From IMG/VR virus record IMGVR_UViG_3300046167_000724: a stretch of 64,000 nt of DNA; one strand, written 5' to 3'. The position numbers were made by a program, and so were the translations under genes. Origin of the DNA: a virus. Lineage: Duplodnaviria; Caudoviricetes. The notes below the pieces were generated by a model. It was given only the letters and a program-made list of their open reading frames with translations, did not search any database and was not told where the DNA came from. This document shows, piece after piece, positions 2,903-45,428 of this stretch (within the stretch, counting starts at the first letter, position 1; each line of letters begins with the position of its first letter).

Positions 2903-3355
2903 ATGGCAAAAATAGTAATTTTCGATTTAGATGGCACGTTAGCCCTAATCGATAAGCGCAGGGCCAAAGCGGCCTTGCCGAATGGTAAAATGGATTGGGA
3001 CCAATTCTTTGCACCGGAGAACATTCAATTGGACGAGCCGAACTGGCCAGTGATTGAAAGCTTCAAAGCAATGGAAGCGGCAGGATTCACTGTTGGCATC
3101 TTTAGTGGCCGTGACGACATTAGTCGGAAGGAAACTATAGATTGGTTGACACAGCATGGTATTGACCCAAACTTCTTGAAAATGCGCAAGCATCGCACAT
3201 TTACACCTGACGATAAGTTAAAGAAAATGTGGTTAGATGAAGTTCTTGCATTAGGTCATGAAGTGATGTGTGTCTTTGACGACAGAGACAAAGTAGTAAA
3301 AATGTGGCGTGACAATGGCATTAGCTGTTTTCAAGTGGCGCCGGGTGAATTTTAA
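2903..3355 (+). CDS. HAD-family phosphatase similar to the 3'-phosphatase domain of T4 polynucleotide kinase
   Basis: DLDGTLA motif I, FSGR motif II, VFDDR motif IV. Confidence 0.8.
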   Translation: MAKIVIFDLDGTLALIDKRRAKAALPNGKMDWDQFFAPENIQLDEPNWPVIESFKAMEAAGFTVGIFSGRDDISRKETIDWLTQHGIDPNFLKMRKHRTFTPDDKLKKMWLDEVLALGHEVMCVFDDRDKVVKMWRDNGISCFQVAPGEF

Positions 3356-3358
3356 GTT

Positions 3359-3580
3359 ATGGTAGAGATAGTCGGCTATATTGCAACATTCCTTGTAATG
3401 CTTTCATTCATGATGAAGAACGTTACAAGATTGAGAATCATCAACGCGATTGGTTGTGCAACGTGGATTCTATATGGGTTCATGTTGGACAGCAATCCAG
3501 TGATTGTGACTAACGTAGGTATCTTGGCAATCAACTCAGGACACTTACTTAGAAATTATTTGAATAAGGGGTCAAAATAA
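3359..3580 (+). CDS. YgjV-like small inner-membrane protein
   Basis: Three hydrophobic segments; GYIA..SFMM...LRIIN..G..W..YG pattern. Confidence 0.65.
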   Translation: MVEIVGYIATFLVMLSFMMKNVTRLRIINAIGCATWILYGFMLDSNPVIVTNVGILAINSGHLLRNYLNKGSK

Positions 3581-15078: not shown

Positions 15079-16741
15079 CATAGTTATGGGTCTATCGACA
15101 GGCCATAATAGAGGTGCAGCCATAACAGTAGATGGTGAAATGAAAGTGGCTATTTCTAACGAAAGAATCACACGTGTTAAAACAGATCATTCTGATGAGA
15201 TGCCAATTGAATCTATGAACTATTGTCTAGAAGCATTGGGCATTACATATAATGATGTTGATTTATTTGTATACAATATTACAGAGCCTGAAAACAAAGT
15301 TACTGCTAGTTTTGAAAAGGTTACTGGTCAATCAATAGATAAGCTTAAATTTATACCACACCATATTGCACATGCATATTCAACTTTTGCAGCATCTGGC
15401 TTTGAAGAAGCCGCTGTTGTTGTGGTTGATGCAATGGGTTCTGTCTATAATGATGTAACCCCCATTAAAAAATGGTACCAACTTGATGAATCAGAACTAG
15501 AAGAGGGCCAGCAATGGGCTGAAGGCTATTCAATTTATCAGTTTAAGAAAAATGATATTAACCCACACCCAAAATATAAAAAATGGGTGAGATTTCCATT
15601 TCAAGAGCCATATGAAGGTTCTGTAGGTTACTTTTATGGAATGGGTGCAAAACAACTTGTGTATAATCCTAAGAGTAATACATGGCCAGCAGGTAAGCTA
15701 ATGGGTCTTGCTAGTTATGCGGATCCTAAGTTTGTAGAAGATTTTCCTGATTTTTCTATTAGAACAGAAAATGATTTGCAAGTTCCAGCAACTCCTTTAT
15801 TAGATGATGAAACTAACTGGGAGTCTGATTTTGCGGCTAAGGCTAATGTTGCCGGTCTTTATCAAAGAGAGCAAGAATTAAATTCAATGCACTTAGTAGA
15901 AATGGCTAAAAGGTTAACAGACTCTGATAACATATGTGTTGCTGGTGGTTCATTCTTAAATTGTAATACTAACGAGATGATTATTCGTTCAGGTCTTTTT
16001 GAGAATCAATACTTTATGCCACCTGCAGATGATTCAGGTATTCCACATGGTTGTGCATATGCTGGAGCTGCTTACTTAATGGATGAAATTAGAACAGGTG
16101 ATTGGATGTCAGCATATACTGGTAAAATTTACTCAGATGACGCCATTGAAAAAGCTATTGAATCTTTTGATTTAGTTGACTTCAATAAGATTACTAAGGA
16201 AGAAAAGTATAATTTAGCGGCTCGAATGTTAAATGATAATAAAGTTATTGGCTGGATGCAGAACGGTTCAGAAACAGGCCCTAGAGCTCTTGGTAACCGT
16301 TCAATGCTTGCAAGTCCAAAATCACCATGGATGGTAAACTATATTAACTCAGAGATTAAAAGAAGAGAATGGTACCGCCCGTTCGCACCTTCGGTCTTAT
16401 ATGATAAGCAAGCTGAAATCTTTGAACTTGATACATACTCACCATATATGTTAGTAACAACAATGGTTAAAGAAGAATGGCGAGATAAGATTCCATCAGT
16501 CGTACACCATGACGGTACTTCAAGGTATCAATCGGTGACTAAAGAAAATAATGAAGAGTACTATAATTTAATTAGCGCATTTTACGAAAAGTCAGAAGTG
16601 CCAGTTGTACTTAACACTTCCTTTAACGGTCCTGATGAACCTGTAGTAGAAACACCCGAAGACGCAATAAATTCAATGCTAAAGCATGATTTATACGTTT
16701 TATTTATAAATGATTATATAATTTTTAGAAATGACAAATAA
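15071..16741 (+). CDS. O-carbamoyltransferase (NodU/CmcH family)
   Basis: HH.AHAYS, DAMG, GKLMGLASY, AGGSFLNC, GPRALGNRS, RPFAP, LNTSFN motifs. Confidence 0.92.
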   Translation: MNNIVMGLSTGHNRGAAITVDGEMKVAISNERITRVKTDHSDEMPIESMNYCLEALGITYNDVDLFVYNITEPENKVTASFEKVTGQSIDKLKFIPHHIAHAYSTFAASGFEEAAVVVVDAMGSVYNDVTPIKKWYQLDESELEEGQQWAEGYSIYQFKKNDINPHPKYKKWVRFPFQEPYEGSVGYFYGMGAKQLVYNPKSNTWPAGKLMGLASYADPKFVEDFPDFSIRTENDLQVPATPLLDDETNWESDFAAKANVAGLYQREQELNSMHLVEMAKRLTDSDNICVAGGSFLNCNTNEMIIRSGLFENQYFMPPADDSGIPHGCAYAGAAYLMDEIRTGDWMSAYTGKIYSDDAIEKAIESFDLVDFNKITKEEKYNLAARMLNDNKVIGWMQNGSETGPRALGNRSMLASPKSPWMVNYINSEIKRREWYRPFAPSVLYDKQAEIFELDTYSPYMLVTTMVKEEWRDKIPSVVHHDGTSRYQSVTKENNEEYYNLISAFYEKSEVPVVLNTSFNGPDEPVVETPEDAINSMLKHDLYVLFINDYIIFRNDK

Positions 16742-18017
16742 TATGAAGAAACCAAGTAACATTAAAATCGTATTGAATGCGATGGTTGGTAATGAAGAAA
16801 ACACCATTACTAGAATGCTTGAATCAACGGCGGACTATATTGATTACTATGTAATTCAATGCAACGGTAAAGTTGATAACACTAGAAAAATCATCGATGA
16901 TTTTTATGCTGAAAGAAATATTCCAGGTTTCACTTATGAAATTGATTGGCAGTTCCCAGGTATTAACAGAGACCACACATTACAGACTTGTTTAAAGGCA
17001 GACCACGGTTGTGATTGGATTTTACGTATGGATGCTGATGAGCAATTATTAGTTGATGACACATTTGACTGGACAGTATTTGAAGACCTTTCAATTGATT
17101 CATTTAATGTACCTGCAGATGCTGGTGATTCAATCTACTTTAGAACGTGGATGTGGAACGCAGATAGACCATGGTACTTTACACATGATAAACGCCATGA
17201 AACTATTCACCTTCCAGTAATTGATGAAGGTTTCCAGAGAGTTAGTTTAGACCGTGGATTCAGACACTACATTACAAATGATGGTGAGACATGGGATGCT
17301 CCGATGAAATTCTTAACAGATGCATTAGAACTTGAAAAAGATAAAGTACCGAGCAATTTAGTACTTGAAGACAATTACCACTTATTCTATATTGGTAAAT
17401 CTTATTCAGATTCTTATGGAAATCCAAATGAACTTCCGTTTGGTAAAGAACATGCAGATGAGTATGCACGTCGCGCAATTTTCTATTTTAACATGTATAT
17501 TAATAAACTTCATAATTATAAAGAAACTCAAAGACCGGCAACTGAAGATGATATGGGATATTACGCAATGTATCTAATCGCACGTGCTTATGAGTTTATT
17601 GGTGATAATGAAATGGCATTAGAATGTTACTCAAGGTCTTTAGAATTTAGCCCACGTAGAAACGAGGCTATTTACTCAAGAGCTGAATTGTTTGAAAGAA
17701 TGGGCCAGTATAAAGATATGTTAGCTGAAACTACAATTCTTGTTCATGAAAATAGACCACATCCATTCCCAGAGGTTTCTTTCTTAGTACATAATTCTGC
17801 ATATTATAACACAAACCCATTACCATTATGGTTACACCTTAAAGCGTTAAAAGCTAATGGTATGGATATGACTGCAACTATTACTAGGTTAGAATCATTA
17901 CATTCTGATTTACCAGAATACATTACATCAGTTTATTCTAATATAGAAGATGTGACGGTTTTAGAAGATATTGAAACTGCAAATAAATTATCAGGTGTCT
18001 TTGGAATCACAAGATAA
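16731..18017 (+). CDS. GT2-like glycosyltransferase with TPR C-terminus
   Basis: MVGNEE..I.R.LES, WILRMDADE, HET; TPR-like helices (PRRNEA). Confidence 0.8.
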   Translation: MTNNMKKPSNIKIVLNAMVGNEENTITRMLESTADYIDYYVIQCNGKVDNTRKIIDDFYAERNIPGFTYEIDWQFPGINRDHTLQTCLKADHGCDWILRMDADEQLLVDDTFDWTVFEDLSIDSFNVPADAGDSIYFRTWMWNADRPWYFTHDKRHETIHLPVIDEGFQRVSLDRGFRHYITNDGETWDAPMKFLTDALELEKDKVPSNLVLEDNYHLFYIGKSYSDSYGNPNELPFGKEHADEYARRAIFYFNMYINKLHNYKETQRPATEDDMGYYAMYLIARAYEFIGDNEMALECYSRSLEFSPRRNEAIYSRAELFERMGQYKDMLAETTILVHENRPHPFPEVSFLVHNSAYYNTNPLPLWLHLKALKANGMDMTATITRLESLHSDLPEYITSVYSNIEDVTVLEDIETANKLSGVFGITR

Positions 18018-19107
18018 ATTATATGACTTTGTTATCGTGGGCGCAGGCTTTTATGGCGCCATATGTGCCCACGAATTAACAAAAGCAGGGAAATCTGTAC
18101 TGGTCCTTGAAAAAAGAAACCATATCGGAGGGAACTGTTATACACACAACATTGATGGTGTTCATGTCCATGAATATGGCCCTCATATATTCCACACCAA
18201 TGACCAAAAGATTTGGGATTGGATAAATCAGTTCGCGGAGTTTAACAACTACAAGAACACTCCAGTTGCAAATTACAAAGGTGAAATTTACTCACTTCCA
18301 TTTTCAATGTGGACCTTTAGTCAAATGTGGGGTGTTAAAACTCCAGAGGAGGCTAAGGCAAAGATTGAATCTCAAAGATACGAAGGTAAGGTCTCGAATC
18401 TTGAGGAACAAGCACTTTCGCTAGTTGGTAAGGATATTTATGAGAAGCTAATTAAGGGATATACCACCAAACAATGGAGAAAAGACCCGAAGGAGCTACC
18501 GGCTTCGATTATTAAGAGACTTCCAGTTCGATTTACTTATGACAATAATTATTTCAACGACAAGTATCAAGGTATTCCAGTTGGTGGCTACACTCAAATC
18601 TTTGAACGGTTATTAGATGGTGTAAACATCAAGTTTAACATTGACTACTTTGAAAACAGAGCACAGTGGGACACAATCGCTAAAAATGTAATCTATACTG
18701 GACCTATAGATAAGTTTTTCGATTACGAACATGGTGACCTGGAGTACAAATCTATTCGATGGGAAAACGAATTGATGGACACTGATAACCATCAAGGTTG
18801 TGCTGTTATGAATTATACAGATGTTGAAACACAACATACAAGAGTTATTGAACACAAGTACTTTGACGATCAAAATCAAAAAACTACTTATGTTAGTAAA
18901 GAGTTTCCGCAAGAATACAAAAGAGGTGTTGAACCGTTTTATCCTGTGAATGATGAGACTAATACTGAAATTTATAGAAAGTATAAAGCGAAAGCTGATG
19001 CTATACCAAATATACATTTCGGTGGAAGACTAGCAACTTACAAATATTACGATATGCATCAAGTAATTGCTTCGGCATTGCACGATCTTGAAACAAAATT
19101 AAAGTAA
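18001..19107 (+). CDS. glf: UDP-galactopyranose mutase
   Basis: VGAGFYGA, HIGGNCY, H.YGPHIFHT, YF.D.YQGIP..GY, GRLATYKYYDMHQ. Start TTG 18001 or 17971. Confidence 0.95.
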   Translation: MESQDKLYDFVIVGAGFYGAICAHELTKAGKSVLVLEKRNHIGGNCYTHNIDGVHVHEYGPHIFHTNDQKIWDWINQFAEFNNYKNTPVANYKGEIYSLPFSMWTFSQMWGVKTPEEAKAKIESQRYEGKVSNLEEQALSLVGKDIYEKLIKGYTTKQWRKDPKELPASIIKRLPVRFTYDNNYFNDKYQGIPVGGYTQIFERLLDGVNIKFNIDYFENRAQWDTIAKNVIYTGPIDKFFDYEHGDLEYKSIRWENELMDTDNHQGCAVMNYTDVETQHTRVIEHKYFDDQNQKTTYVSKEFPQEYKRGVEPFYPVNDETNTEIYRKYKAKADAIPNIHFGGRLATYKYYDMHQVIASALHDLETKLK

Positions 19108-19109
19108 TT

Positions 19110-19820
19110 ATGGAATTTATAAACTTAAGAACTAATTATAAACTAGCAACCCCGTTTCCGCATATAGTGATAGATGAACTTATTGACATTGAAGATGCAA
19201 AGCAATGTGTATCTGAAATGAAAAAATATGAGATGTGGGGTCATGACAGCTCTGAATATTCAAAAAAAGCACAAGTAAAAAAATACTTTACACCCTGGTG
19301 TGATGATAACATTGAAGATATTAAAAAACAAATGCCATTAACTTGGAAATATTTACAATTCTTTAACTCACCCGAATTCATTCAACATCTTGAAAACTTA
19401 ACAGGTATTAAAGGTTTGATTGCTGATGATTTATATGAGGGTGGTGGTTGTCATAAAATAGATTCAGGTGGTAGGCTTTCTATTCATACTGATTATGCAA
19501 AGCACCCTAGAAAAGACCTATACCGTAGAATTAACTTGTTATTATATTTAAATGAAGATTGGCAAGATGAATGGGGTGGTACGTTACAGTTATGGAAGCA
19601 TGATATGTCGGAATTAGTATCTGAAGTTCAACCTAAAATGAATAGAGCTGTTATTTTTAATACAACTAGTAAATCATTACATGGTCACCCTAATCCACTT
19701 AATTCACCTGAAGGAGTATCGAGGTATTCTATCGCACTTTACTATTTTACAAAAGAAAAGTTTGAAGATTCAGACGCTATTGCAGCAACTTGGTATGATG
19801 TTGAAACAAAATTAGATTAA
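19110..19820 (+). CDS. 2OG-Fe(II) oxygenase (prolyl-hydroxylase-like)
   Basis: PFPH, GGG.H, IHTD, LLLYLN..W...WGG.L.L, SLHG, RYSIA.YY. Confidence 0.88.
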   Translation: MEFINLRTNYKLATPFPHIVIDELIDIEDAKQCVSEMKKYEMWGHDSSEYSKKAQVKKYFTPWCDDNIEDIKKQMPLTWKYLQFFNSPEFIQHLENLTGIKGLIADDLYEGGGCHKIDSGGRLSIHTDYAKHPRKDLYRRINLLLYLNEDWQDEWGGTLQLWKHDMSELVSEVQPKMNRAVIFNTTSKSLHGHPNPLNSPEGVSRYSIALYYFTKEKFEDSDAIAATWYDVETKLD

Positions 19821-19834: not shown

Positions 19835-20299
19835 ATGAATATTAAACGCATTTTCACAAAAATCTACATCAAATCTATATTTGATAACAGGAATGAAACT
19901 ATTAAAGATCATGAACGTGAGATTTCAATATTGACAAGGCGTTTAATACAACTTGAAGATTCAATGCTTCTATTGACACCAGACTTAAGTAAAAGGTATG
20001 TTGTTAATAAGCAAGAAGGTTTGACAGTTATTATTCAATCCGGAATGGTCGTGGTTATTAAAGACAATTTAGCTTATCATGTTCCTTTAGAGAACAAACG
20101 CAAAATGAAAAAGCTTAAAGCATTCTTTGATGAACGTGCACTTGAACGTAGAGAATTAATGGAGTTAGGTATTATCGCAAATGTAAAAAATACGATTAAA
20201 GATATATCAAACGATATTAAATCAAAACTACCGGTTGAACCAGAACCCGAGTACATTACAGTGCTCAAAGAAAAACACAATAAAAACAGTGATATATAA
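19835..20299 (+). CDS. hypothetical protein
   Basis: 154-aa basic, coiled ORF. Confidence 0.6.
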   Translation: MNIKRIFTKIYIKSIFDNRNETIKDHEREISILTRRLIQLEDSMLLLTPDLSKRYVVNKQEGLTVIIQSGMVVVIKDNLAYHVPLENKRKMKKLKAFFDERALERRELMELGIIANVKNTIKDISNDIKSKLPVEPEPEYITVLKEKHNKNSDI

Positions 20300-20309
20300 C
20301 ACTGTTCAA

Positions 20310-20339
20310 TTGAAACATTAATTAAACAAAAAGTATAAC
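20310..20339 (+). promoter_or_regulatory. class II promoter of the Hc1-like gene
   Basis: TTGAAA-N18-TATAAC ending 1 nt before ATG 20341. Confidence 0.55.
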
Positions 20340-20340
20340 A

Positions 20341-20517
20341 ATGGAATTATTTGAACAAATGGTAGCTTTAATTGAAGCTGCAGGCGCAGACGCTGACAAG
20401 TTTTATGACAAAGGAAACAAAGCAGCTGGTGTAAGATTGCGTAAAGCAATGCAAGAGATTAAAAAAGTAGCACAAGAGGTTCGCCTTGACGTTGCTGCAA
20501 AGAATAAAGGAGAGTAA
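20341..20517 (+). CDS. histone H1-like (Hc1 family) nucleoid protein, 58 aa, not in ORF track
   Basis: MELFEQMVALIEAAGADADKFYDKGNKAAGVRLRKAMQEIKKVAQEVRLDV; GNKAAG.R.RK is the Hc1 signature. Confidence 0.8.
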   Translation: MELFEQMVALIEAAGADADKFYDKGNKAAGVRLRKAMQEIKKVAQEVRLDVAAKNKGE

Positions 20518-20528
20518 TCCTTTAAAGC

Positions 20529-20810
20529 GTAGGGGTTCACATCAAGCACGAATCGACACATACCGGAAAGGTTGACGAGTGTGCAATAAAGATTGAACCC
20601 GTATTTGAGTGCCACTTCTACACAATGAAGTGGATTTATAAGAAGGGCTGTCTCGCTCAAACGTATGCGAGACCTTACCGGGTAAAAGACTGATAAAGGC
20701 CAGGATGTCGACCACTGTGATTTAACTCAATCATAGGCCTCAGTTCCCCTACCACATGCCGTGAGGAGTGGTTATAGAATATAGAAGTGTAGTAAGCCCC
20801 TTCTTTTTTA
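20529..20810 (+). ncRNA. unassigned highly structured RNA candidate (~280 nt)
   Basis: No good + strand ORF. Stems GGGTTCA/TGAACCC, CCACTTC/GAAGTGG, GTCTCGC/GCGAGAC, AGGCC/GGCCT, AGAAGGGCT/AGCCCCTTCT, then a T run. Confidence 0.6.
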
Positions 20811-20812
20811 TC

Positions 20813-20842
20813 TTGAAACATTTTTAAATTATTTCGTATAAT
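20813..20842 (+). promoter_or_regulatory. class II promoter
   Basis: TTGAAA-N18-TATAAT. Confidence 0.65.
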
Positions 20843-20854
20843 ACAAAAATAGAT

Positions 20855-21256
20855 TTGTATACAATGAAACAAAAAGTAATTAACGTAACTTATCGCAAGG
20901 ATTCAAAGACGTTTCCAGATTGGTTAAAGTACGAGGTTGAACTTATTAATGAAGACGGTTCAACTTCTAAAATCCCGGCTTACGGTAAAGATCTTCAAGA
21001 CGCTCTTTCTCGAGTTGTTCACGATCAAAAAGTAGAAAAGATTGAAAAGCAAACAAAGCGTATTCCAGATATAGTATGGGTTCTTCTTTGGTTTGGTTAT
21101 ATTTTAGGTTGGACTATGCTAACTTACGAGGTTTCACCTTATGCTAAGTTTAATGGTCTATTTTTTATTGGAGGCATTGCACTAATTACAGGCGTTACTG
21201 TATGGGCAAAGGCTTGGTTTAGAAAACGTAACCGCGATAAAAATGTCAACGCTTGA
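20855..21256 (+). CDS. membrane protein
   Basis: Soluble N-terminal domain (PAYGKDLQDAL) plus two TM helices. Confidence 0.7.
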   Translation: MYTMKQKVINVTYRKDSKTFPDWLKYEVELINEDGSTSKIPAYGKDLQDALSRVVHDQKVEKIEKQTKRIPDIVWVLLWFGYILGWTMLTYEVSPYAKFNGLFFIGGIALITGVTVWAKAWFRKRNRDKNVNA

Positions 21257-34025: not shown

Positions 34026-35888
34026 ATGTGCGGAATAGTAGGATACGTTGGTAAAAATAAAGAAGCTCGTGATGTAGTCATCAAGGGTTTAAGACGATTA
34101 GAATACCGCGGCTATGATTCTGCGGGAATCGCTGTAAAATTACAAGATAGTACGTCACGTGTTATTCGTGCAGTTGGTGGTGTTGATAACTTATATGATG
34201 CATTACCAGAAGATTTACAATCAGGTAGTATTGCAATTGGTCATACTCGCTGGGCGACTCACGGTGAACCAGCTGAAAGAAATGCACACCCACATACTTC
34301 GATGAATGGTGTAATTACACTTGTGCATAATGGTATTATTGAAAACTACGAAACACTCAAGAAAAAGTTAATTACTGAAGGGTATACCTTTGAATCAGAT
34401 ACAGATACTGAAGTTTTAGCAAATTGGATTGAATACATTTATTATAAGGTATTTTCGGCTGAAATGGGTGGCCTTAGTGAGATTGTACATACTGCATTAA
34501 AAGATGTTGTTGGAGCATATGCCATTTTAGTGGTTGATATGTATTCAGATGATGTTGTAATGGCGAAAAAGTCTTCACCTCTTGCGATTGGTATCGGTGA
34601 TGGTGAATTTATCATTGCATCAGATGCAACACCAATCGTTGAATACACTAAGGACATTATCTATTTAGAAGACGACCAGCTGGGCGTCATTGAAAACAAG
34701 GCAAACCTACGTATTATAGATTCTAACGCGATAGAGGTTGACCCGGTGGTTGAAACAGTTGAAATGGAGCTTGACCAACTAGAAAAGGGTGGTTACGACT
34801 CATTCATGCTTAAAGAAATTCACGAGCAGCCAGAAACTATCACAAATTGCATACGTGGTAGGCTAACTGAAGGCCTAGAACCCCTAATGATGGGCGGGCT
34901 AGAGCCAATTATGCCACAATTATTAAGAGCACAAAAGATTTTTATTGTAGCGTGTGGAACTTCTTGGCATGCAGCACTTGCAGGTAAGAATATGATTGAG
35001 ACTTTGGCTAGAATTCCCGTTGAAGTAGATTATGCTTCAGAATTCAGGTACAGAGACCCTATTATTCATCAAGGTGACGTTGTTATTGCAATTACACAAT
35101 CGGGTGAGACTGCAGATACCAAAGCCGCACTTGAAATGGCCAAAGAACGTGGTGCAACTTTATTTGGGATTGTAAATGCAGTGGGTTCATCTATTGCTAG
35201 AATGACAGATGCTGGTATTTATACACATTCAGGTGTTGAGGTTGGTGTAGCATCAACTAAAGCGTTTACAGGTCAAGTTGCAGCACTAGCACTTTTAGCT
35301 ATTAAACTAGGTCGTCAATTAGGTAACATCAACGATGACAGGTACTTACAACTAAAATCTTCATTACGTGGTATTCCAAGCAAGATTAAGAGCATTCTAG
35401 ACAAGTCTGATGACATATTAAAGATTGCAGATGCATACGCCAATGAAGACTATAAGGACTTCTTATACTTGGCTAGAGGTTTCAATTTTCCAATAGCACT
35501 AGAAGGTGCCTTAAAACTAAAAGAAATTTCATATGCACACGCTGAAGGATATCCAGCCGGTGAAATGAAACATGGTCCAATTGCATTGATTGATGAAAAT
35601 TGTCCTTCAGTTTTTATTATGCCGAATGACAGTAATTATGGTAAAGTCTTATCAAATATGCAAGAGGTTAAGGCTAGAAAGGGTAAAGTTATTGCTATTG
35701 TAAATGACGGTGAAGAAGTTGTTAAGACTATTGCAGATCATGTAATTGAAATTCCAGAAACTGACCCAATACTTGCACCAATGCTAACAGTTATACCAAT
35801 GCAATTAATTTCTTATCAAATTGCATCAAAACGTGGTAAAAACGTAGATAAACCTAGAAATTTAGCAAAAAGTGTCACTGTAGAATAA
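34026..35888 (+). CDS. glmS: glutamine--fructose-6-phosphate aminotransferase
   Basis: MCGIVG start, LEYRGYDSAG, GHTRWATHG, SQ/TQSGETAD, GELKHG-like GEMKHGP, C-terminal PRNLAKSVTVE. Confidence 0.97.
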   Translation: MCGIVGYVGKNKEARDVVIKGLRRLEYRGYDSAGIAVKLQDSTSRVIRAVGGVDNLYDALPEDLQSGSIAIGHTRWATHGEPAERNAHPHTSMNGVITLVHNGIIENYETLKKKLITEGYTFESDTDTEVLANWIEYIYYKVFSAEMGGLSEIVHTALKDVVGAYAILVVDMYSDDVVMAKKSSPLAIGIGDGEFIIASDATPIVEYTKDIIYLEDDQLGVIENKANLRIIDSNAIEVDPVVETVEMELDQLEKGGYDSFMLKEIHEQPETITNCIRGRLTEGLEPLMMGGLEPIMPQLLRAQKIFIVACGTSWHAALAGKNMIETLARIPVEVDYASEFRYRDPIIHQGDVVIAITQSGETADTKAALEMAKERGATLFGIVNAVGSSIARMTDAGIYTHSGVEVGVASTKAFTGQVAALALLAIKLGRQLGNINDDRYLQLKSSLRGIPSKIKSILDKSDDILKIADAYANEDYKDFLYLARGFNFPIALEGALKLKEISYAHAEGYPAGEMKHGPIALIDENCPSVFIMPNDSNYGKVLSNMQEVKARKGKVIAIVNDGEEVVKTIADHVIEIPETDPILAPMLTVIPMQLISYQIASKRGKNVDKPRNLAKSVTVE

Positions 35889-45353: not shown

Positions 45354-45361
45354 AGAACATT

Positions 45362-45390
45362 AAGGGACGTGAGTTTTTGCGTCCCTTTTT
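45362..45390 (+). terminator. intrinsic terminator
   Basis: AAGGGACG/CGTCCCTT stem plus T run. Confidence 0.75.
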
Positions 45391-45428
45391 ATTTGAAACA
45401 ACATCTATATTCAATCGTATAATAATTA

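Follow-up and report, generated by a model that had tools for sequence, protein, structure and literature searches.

A 64,000-nt stretch of DNA from a virus of the Caudoviricetes (IMG/VR record IMGVR_UViG_3300046167_000724; hereafter the window) carries, between the gene of an Hc1 histone H1-like protein and the next early-promoter-like site, a G+C-rich element that is almost certainly a genuine, conserved, structured RNA of the + strand. Nearly all open reading frames (ORFs) of the window lie on one strand, and the phage presumably belongs to an uncultured marine lineage of T4-like giant phages. The RNA element starts past the Hc1 stop codon, and no promoter-like site was called from the Hc1 start (20341) to 20813. 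At 20813, 3 nt past the U-run of the element, begins a promoter-like site that is kept in homologues; in the pattern scan, the promoter type that heads the Hc1 cassette occurs both here and at 19801. The features that flank the element are as follows.

20310..20339, + strand: early-promoter-like site heading the Hc1 cassette (TTGAAACA, 16-nt spacer, TATAAC; pattern scan)
20341..20517, + strand: Hc1 histone H1-like gene, 58 aa (PF07432, E 9e-23)
20813..20842, + strand: next early-promoter-like site (TTGAAA, 18-nt spacer, TATAAT; 11/12 consensus matches)
20864-21256: membrane-protein gene, 130 aa, next downstream

The initial annotation of this locus, made from the letters alone, had described a non-coding, G+C-rich stretch downstream of an Hc1 gene, and the composition, the ORFs and the PF07432 match upstream agree with it. 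In particular, the G+C content is 0.43-0.455 over positions 20500-20800, as against 0.27-0.34 in the flanks. No + strand ORF of at least 30 aa lies within 20518-20854 and no conserved + strand ORF was found (the ATG at 20625 runs into a stop in the homologue L081), while an antisense ORF of 65 aa (20675-20872) has no protein relatives except its own fragment. Folding of positions 20529-20809 yields a free energy of -86.5 kcal/mol on the + strand (z -2.94; none of 200 shuffles folds as well), and a z of -1.75 on the - strand. The minimum-energy fold of the + strand includes all six stems that had been named, though the first of them (20533-43/20591-600) exists only in the sequence type of this phage. 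The proposal of an RNA of ~280 nt was right about a structured RNA and too generous about its extent: the unit shared among homologues is ~205 nt long (20604-20809) and consists of a UUUGAGUG block, the hairpin H2, a four-way-junction domain (P1-P6) and a U-run. The parts of the element are as follows.

20529..20604, + strand: Domain 1, an irregular 76-nt 5′ hairpin (folded alone, -24.8 kcal/mol, z -3.6)
20604..20611, + strand: UUUGAGUG block, last seven bases invariant in all homologues
20612..20633, + strand: hairpin H2 (stem 20612-18/20627-33), stem sequence replaced across types with pairing kept
20640-49/20795-805, + strand: P1, closing helix of the four-way-junction domain, 9 pairs, five of them G/C
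20650..20673, + strand: P2 hairpin with a variable loop (stem 20650-56/20667-73), inner three pairs covarying
20674..20748, + strand: J2/3 and the long arm, junction and loop bases invariant
20680-82/20746-48, + strand: P3a
20688-93/20740-45, + strand: P3b
20698-701/20736-39, + strand: P4
20703-04/20712-13, + strand: P4a
20716-21/20730-35, + strand: P5
20751..20772, + strand: P6 hairpin (20751-55/20768-72 and 20759-60/20765-66) with a GNRA tetraloop cap, pairs never varying
20773..20794, + strand: tail of 22 unpaired nt, whose 3′ half (AAGUGUAGUA) never varies
20795..20809, + strand: P1 3′ strand (20795-20805) and U-run (20804-20809), a terminator-like 3′ end

Homologues were recovered via relatives of the downstream gene and by one metagenome pattern scan. 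Together they amount to 19 covariance-model matches, 18 of them distinct, which fall into five sequence types and come from seawater and estuary metagenomes. The RNAalifold consensus contains 44 pairs, 9 of which have compensatory double changes. Pair counts were made on an alignment fitted to the covariance model, with sequences of about five related types; there, standard pairs occupy 99.5% of the cells, compared to 33-51% when the 3′ partners are slid by 1-3 columns, 9 pairs are changed on both sides, compared to 0-1 when slid, and the covariation score is reached by 0/500 shuffles. The changes are spread over several helices. The inner pairs of P2 read CGC/GCG, UGU/ACA or CAC/GUG across types, one pair of P3b is C-G, U.G or U-A, two pairs of P5 swap G-C/A-U for A-U/G-C, and 3/9 pairs of P1 have changes on both sides, with other types adding two mutually paired bases per strand. 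Further, the H2 stem is CCACUUC/GAAGUGG in this phage and CUACAUU/AAUGUAG or CUACAUC/GAUGUAG elsewhere, and all three forms fold. Of the five annotated stems that are shared among types, four thereby contain covarying pairs (20612-18/20627-33, 20650-56/20667-73, 20718-22/20729-33 and the closing stem 20641-49/20795-804, which is indeed followed by a U run at 20804-20809), and in the fifth (20697-701/20736-40), which remains paired throughout, a single one-sided change (G.U) occurs. The tetraloop of P6 is GUGA here and GCGA elsewhere, a single loop change that keeps the GNRA form.

Both the strand and the mode of selection can be read from these substitutions. G.U pairs are frequent and would be C.A on the opposite strand, which fixes the RNA on the + strand. 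Among near-identical copies, all single-nucleotide polymorphisms (SNPs) are either unpaired (20750, 20784, and the apical and internal loops of Domain 1) or give G.U pairs; for example, 20799 C>T turns a G-C of P1 into G.U, and 20784 lies in the variable 5′ half of the tail. Domain 1 is present only in the sequence type of this phage (the window, L074-80, L100, L112 and L113) and absent from the other four types, and its variants (in L112, L113 and the RNA-library run X17) are confined to loops or change G-C to G.U. Moreover, identity between types is 84-93% for the core (J2/3 to tail) and 86-92% for the unpaired bases within it, as against 65-85% for the four-fold degenerate sites of the adjacent gene. 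Because both values lie above those of the four-fold sites, selection acts on the sequence itself and not just on its pairing; by this comparison, the RNA sequence is under purifying selection. Within the UUUGAGUG block, UGAGU (20606-10) may also pair with the P5 loop ACUCA (20725-29), neither side of which ever varies.

Other long-distance pairings had been proposed for the single sequence, and the homologues do not bear them out. The pseudoknot between CTACAC (20618-23) and GTGTAG (20787-92) is complementary in this phage and is not conserved: L112, with CAACAC, loses a pair, and the other types have an unrelated H2 loop. Two alternative pairings taken as hints of switching are not conserved either. 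Several window-type copies have 20750 T>C, which breaks GTAGGGG/CCCCTAC, and four types lack the 5′ partner of this pairing; an A>T change in four types removes the central pair of GACCACT/AGTGGTT. A mimic of a tRNA or transfer-messenger RNA (tmRNA), in which GTAGGGG/CCCCTAC would act as an acceptor-like stem followed by CCA, was rejected on the same positions (20750 T>C in L074, L075, L079 and L100; 5′ partner missing in four types).

Known families do not account for the element. A scan of the whole window with Rfam 15 at the gathering score returned only a tRNA at 1216-1287 and nothing in the element; at E<=10, positions 20300-21000 gave only a 15-nt chance match outside it; and the homologues L081, L092 and L119 had no match at E<=1. 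ARAGORN called no tRNA or tmRNA in the element. These results sustain the earlier view that it has no tRNA, tmRNA, RNase P, signal recognition particle (SRP) or intron signature; nor did any 6S RNA, riboswitch or self-cleaving ribozyme family reach its gathering score there. Likenesses to the SRP Alu domain, the cobalamin B12 box, the thiamine pyrophosphate riboswitch and the group I core were discarded, having no Rfam score behind them and bases that are paired otherwise or variable. With three sequence types scanned, the element is, as far as covariance models can tell, a member of no described RNA family, and the suggestion of a novel phage non-coding RNA is upheld by covariation in 18 distinct homologues, + strand G.U pairs, purifying selection, the Rfam result and RNA-library contigs.

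The genomic context of the RNA is constant on one side and variable on the other. The downstream 130-aa protein has graded relatives in a large protein collection, from 98% to 73% identity, and the contigs of these relatives were compared. L074-80 carry the stretch nearly unchanged. L081, L091-96 and L119-121 have another Hc1 allele (60 or 62 aa) and then a 213-219-nt version with 75-83% identity. L082-85 have an Hc1 gene and then just 63 nt to the promoter, without the RNA, and the metagenome relatives L086, L090 and L117 (downstream protein 85-86%) have neither Hc1 nor RNA. L112 contains a 95% variant with a different gene downstream of the RNA; from ~4290 onward in L112, the product of that gene begins with a signal-peptide-like MKKILTFLLVLSVVFLQAQ. 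A scan of JGI metagenomes with a pattern from two invariant blocks gave ten true copies among 18 matches, L112 being one of the ten, and the remaining eight (L097, L098, L101, L103, L104, L107, L108 and L110) were set aside as G+C-rich chance matches. Hc1 lies directly upstream of the RNA in 15/15 full-length loci and in three diverged alleles (58, 60 and 62 aa); in these loci, the RNA begins 8-10 nt past the Hc1 stop, or 84-86 nt past it if Domain 1 lies in between. Among relatives, the Hc1 alleles, the presence of the RNA and the downstream gene are all swapped at this boundary.

Searches beyond these contigs returned no further copies. The GenBank phage collection gave no match by blastn, by megablast or by tblastn of the next gene. 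In IMG/VR, 66 Hc1 loci and 4 downstream-gene loci had no RNA match by blastn or by covariance model R1, and two exact-pattern scans gave 0 matches; in 40 whole Hc1-bearing phage contigs, R1 found nothing at E below 0.02. One of two exact patterns gave 0 matches in the GTDB species genomes and the other gave 1, in a Bryobacterales metagenome-assembled genome (L116), which was rejected as a chance match because R1 does not match it. In the collections searched, one marine phage lineage accounts for all copies of the RNA, which appears to be restricted to it.

Six RNA-library runs from five studies contain part of the stretch; two of them, X16 and X18, contain some of its words. Contigs were aligned for the other four runs, each from a different study.

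20253-20727: contig of run X15, continuous with Hc1 sequence
20497-20797: contig of run X17, continuous with Hc1 sequence
20540-20800: contig of run X19, 261 nt
20539-20799: contig of run X20, 261 nt

Runs X19 and X20 have no contig over the flanks of the RNA, which is not counted as differential abundance because contigs drop low-depth sequence.

The best explanation as a whole, by a narrow preference over all others together, is that the element is a new, lineage-restricted phage RNA and the structured 3′ terminus of the early Hc1 transcript. The fold has good support; the biochemical role is one that we infer. According to this explanation, the RNA would have no promoter of its own and would be transcribed together with Hc1, as the last part of that early transcript, the closing helix P1 and the U-run would stop transcription just ahead of the next early promoter, and the tight fold would shield the 3′ end so that the piece persists as a stable RNA. 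That the element is a stable RNA embedded in the 3′ end and terminator of Hc1 is, taken by itself, reasonably probable. Its invariant unpaired bases would then form a binding surface, at best guess for a protein, possibly Hc1, and binding of Hc1 would tie the role of the RNA to the dosage or activity of that protein. Hc1 is the first candidate because of its strict adjacency to the RNA and because, according to a citing article, chlamydial Hc1 binds both DNA and RNA (Pedersen 1994, cited in PMC12619734). This last step is a guess, and a doubtful one.

The 3′ end of the element has some of the features of an ordinary terminator. P1 is a G+C-rich stem with U6 directly after it, as in an intrinsic terminator, and the layout of P1, U-run and promoter matches that of an ordinary terminator and promoter at 45360-45423. 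In contrast to a simple hairpin, P1 encloses as its 'loop' a structured RNA of ~145 nt, and it was not called in the terminator scan. At 45360-45423 itself, a G+C-rich hairpin and a U-run are followed directly by a TTGAAACA...TATAAT promoter-like site, in a simple form of the 20795-20842 layout.

Several observations weigh against this explanation. The contigs give neither strand nor RNA ends, and an RNA library can contain DNA. The ends of the X19 and X20 contigs coincide with sites that are polymorphic in DNA loci (20540 in L112, 20799 in L077), so that they are at best a weak hint of RNA ends and perhaps assembly breaks. Many of the base changes are common by descent, which leaves few independent events, roughly as many as the five types, and all homologues come from one phage lineage. 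In L119-121, UUAUUAAUA replaces the U-run, and termination is therefore not obviously conserved. Finally, L082-85 have Hc1 without the RNA, and Hc1 therefore does not need it.

Among the alternatives, a trans-acting phage RNA unrelated to Hc1 would merely use the Hc1 cassette for its expression and would either base-pair with targets as a small RNA or engage a host protein or defence system as a decoy or sponge. Host functions are common targets of phage early genes, the 3′ tail and loops of the RNA are invariant and unpaired, and RNA-library assemblies from four studies contain it. However, complementarity does not exceed that of shuffles either for the translation-start regions of the 96 window ORFs (host targets lie outside this comparison) or for the Hc1 start region in the five types, and the strict adjacency to Hc1 across three alleles would be a coincidence; this alternative is rated improbable.

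A comparably small chance is given to the four-way-junction domain being a new class of sensing RNA, a terminator-embedded aptamer, or a ribozyme, with a metabolite or the Hc1 protein itself as its ligand. If true, the output of a phage histone-like gene and of the downstream cassette would be coupled to the state of the infected cell. A riboswitch-like sensor, in which a ligand or protein stabilises the junction, closes P1 as the terminator stem and ends the Hc1 transcript, with read-through into the next gene otherwise, is slightly less credible still. The anatomy is aptamer-like, with covarying helices, variable peripheral loops (H2 and P2) and invariant junction bases as in a riboswitch core, and the U-run directly follows the P1 3′ strand. 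In each type, a pairing of the H2 5′ strand with the invariant tail can also be drawn, in a register that differs between types; because shuffles do equally well in 15-182 of 500 cases, depending on the type, this alternative pairing is statistically weak and suggestive only. The leader position and gene association of a riboswitch are not found, however: the RNA sits after a gene and not in a 5′ leader, the strong promoter-like site at 20813-42 separates it from the next gene, that gene differs in L112 and is the same without the RNA in L082-85, and the U-run has decayed in L119-121. Moreover, no ligand can be proposed.

Another alternative is an overgrown cassette stem-loop or hitch-hiking insertion, which would have no function beyond ending the cassette and would be kept by linkage only. 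Its narrow distribution, its presence in some close relatives and absence in others, and its position, which at other early promoters is taken by a short terminator hairpin, all favour such an origin. A plain terminator, however, needs neither unpaired core bases that are 86-92% identical where neutral sites are 65-85% identical, nor compensatory changes in four helices, nor a GNRA loop that is preserved through a base change, and this explanation is accordingly rated very unlikely. Least likely is a self-cleaving ribozyme or processing element that excises the RNA from the Hc1 transcript, as the initial annotation had suggested and as a compact fold with invariant junction bases might allow: no self-cleaving family of Rfam 15 matches even at E<=10, the X15 and X17 contigs pass from Hc1 into the RNA without a break, no conserved site was identified at which cleavage might occur, and nothing points to a ribozyme.

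As the structured 3′ end of an early transcript, the element would work most like a 3′-UTR-derived, terminator-sharing RNA at a T4-type cassette boundary. CpxQ, SroC and DapZ of enterobacteria are small RNAs that derive from 3′ untranslated regions (3′ UTRs) and share the terminator of their mRNA. Like them, the phage RNA directly follows the stop codon of a gene, on the strand of that gene; no separate promoter could be found for it, and it ends at a terminator-like helix and U-run. Unlike them, it is phage-encoded, larger and multi-branched, with a 165-nt four-way junction instead of a terminator hairpin and seed; it has no target beyond shuffles in the window, and its processing is only a candidate. 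The boundary itself resembles the PeSL (promoter-early stem-loop) cassettes that Arbiol et al. reportedly described in T4-type phages in 2010: an early promoter comes immediately after a stem and U-run, and the neighbouring genes are shuffled among relatives. In contrast, the PeSL is a short hairpin, and the stem here encloses ~145 nt of conserved, covarying structure. The stable RNA species 1 and 2 of phage T4 (rnaC and rnaD) are small, stable and structured, and are processed with the tRNAs in whose cluster they lie. The element is likened to them, by description and not by sequence, as a small, structured and putatively stable RNA of a T4-type phage; unlike it, the T4 RNAs lie in a tRNA cluster.

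To our knowledge, few structured RNAs of tailed phages have been described apart from tRNAs, introns and some orphan motifs, and giant marine phages have hardly been explored for them. The candidate shows the covariation, purifying selection, fixed strand and presence in RNA libraries that are usually asked of a new RNA family. Since its fixed genetic partner is a histone-like protein thought to compact DNA, it offers a concrete and testable hypothesis, and it implies that the short terminator hairpin of a T4-type cassette boundary can grow into a large functional fold. Because it is found in one phage lineage only, its reach is narrow and its general importance limited until its function is known.

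Comparative genomics has previously yielded orphan structured RNAs from marine metagenomes and phages, including IMES-1 to -4, GOLLD, ROOL, manA and wcaG (Weinberg et al., PMC2864571). The element resembles these in having been found by covariation, in its phage and marine association, in its presence in metatranscriptome assemblies and in its orphan status, and differs in that it matches none of them in Rfam 15. A phage csRNA catalogue based on IMG/VR lists motifs of 29-151 nt (PMC10690425), and two pattern scans found no copy of the phage RNA in IMG/VR. In chlamydiae, IhtA, a small RNA of ~100 nt that is encoded elsewhere, represses translation of Hc1 (hctA) by pairing with the hctA start region (PMC3469542, PMC4355289). 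Both RNAs are linked to an Hc1 histone-like protein, IhtA functionally and the phage RNA by adjacency; in contrast to IhtA, the phage RNA is no more complementary to the Hc1 start region than shuffles are, and no Rfam family matches it.

The Hc1 gene varies in its own right. Among the window, L081, L082, L096 and L119 there are at least four Hc1 alleles (58, 59, 60 and 62 aa) with 62-87% nucleotide identity, and the phages that carry different alleles are otherwise collinear, with flanking genes that are 80-93% identical. This diversity suggests that cassettes are replaced at early-promoter boundaries. The boundary upstream of the 130-aa gene collects different RNA genes in different phages. 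In the relative L070, the homologous gene is flanked by tRNA genes, one directly upstream (2394-2467) and one downstream (3317-3401). In L086 (999-1320), L090 and L117, the slot holds ~300-500 nt of C/A-rich, G-poor DNA with repeated CACAG units, in which no gene was called and R1 has no match. In the related phage L068 (IMG/VR contig 3300025666_000002), a G+C-rich stretch of ~600 nt (1130-1750) precedes the homologous 130-aa gene by ~0.7-1.4 kb; it contains many short CAGAGT/ACTCAGAGTA-like units but no convincing ORF, has no Rfam match at the gathering score, and could be another non-coding element.

Elsewhere in the window, a 620-aa ORF (34026-35888) is 41-44% identical over its full length to GlmS (glucosamine-fructose-6-phosphate aminotransferase) genes annotated in phage and bacterial records, and looks like an auxiliary sugar-metabolism gene. 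Sugar-modifying genes near it include a UDP-galactopyranose mutase (17971-19107) and a glycosyltransferase-like gene (16731-18017).
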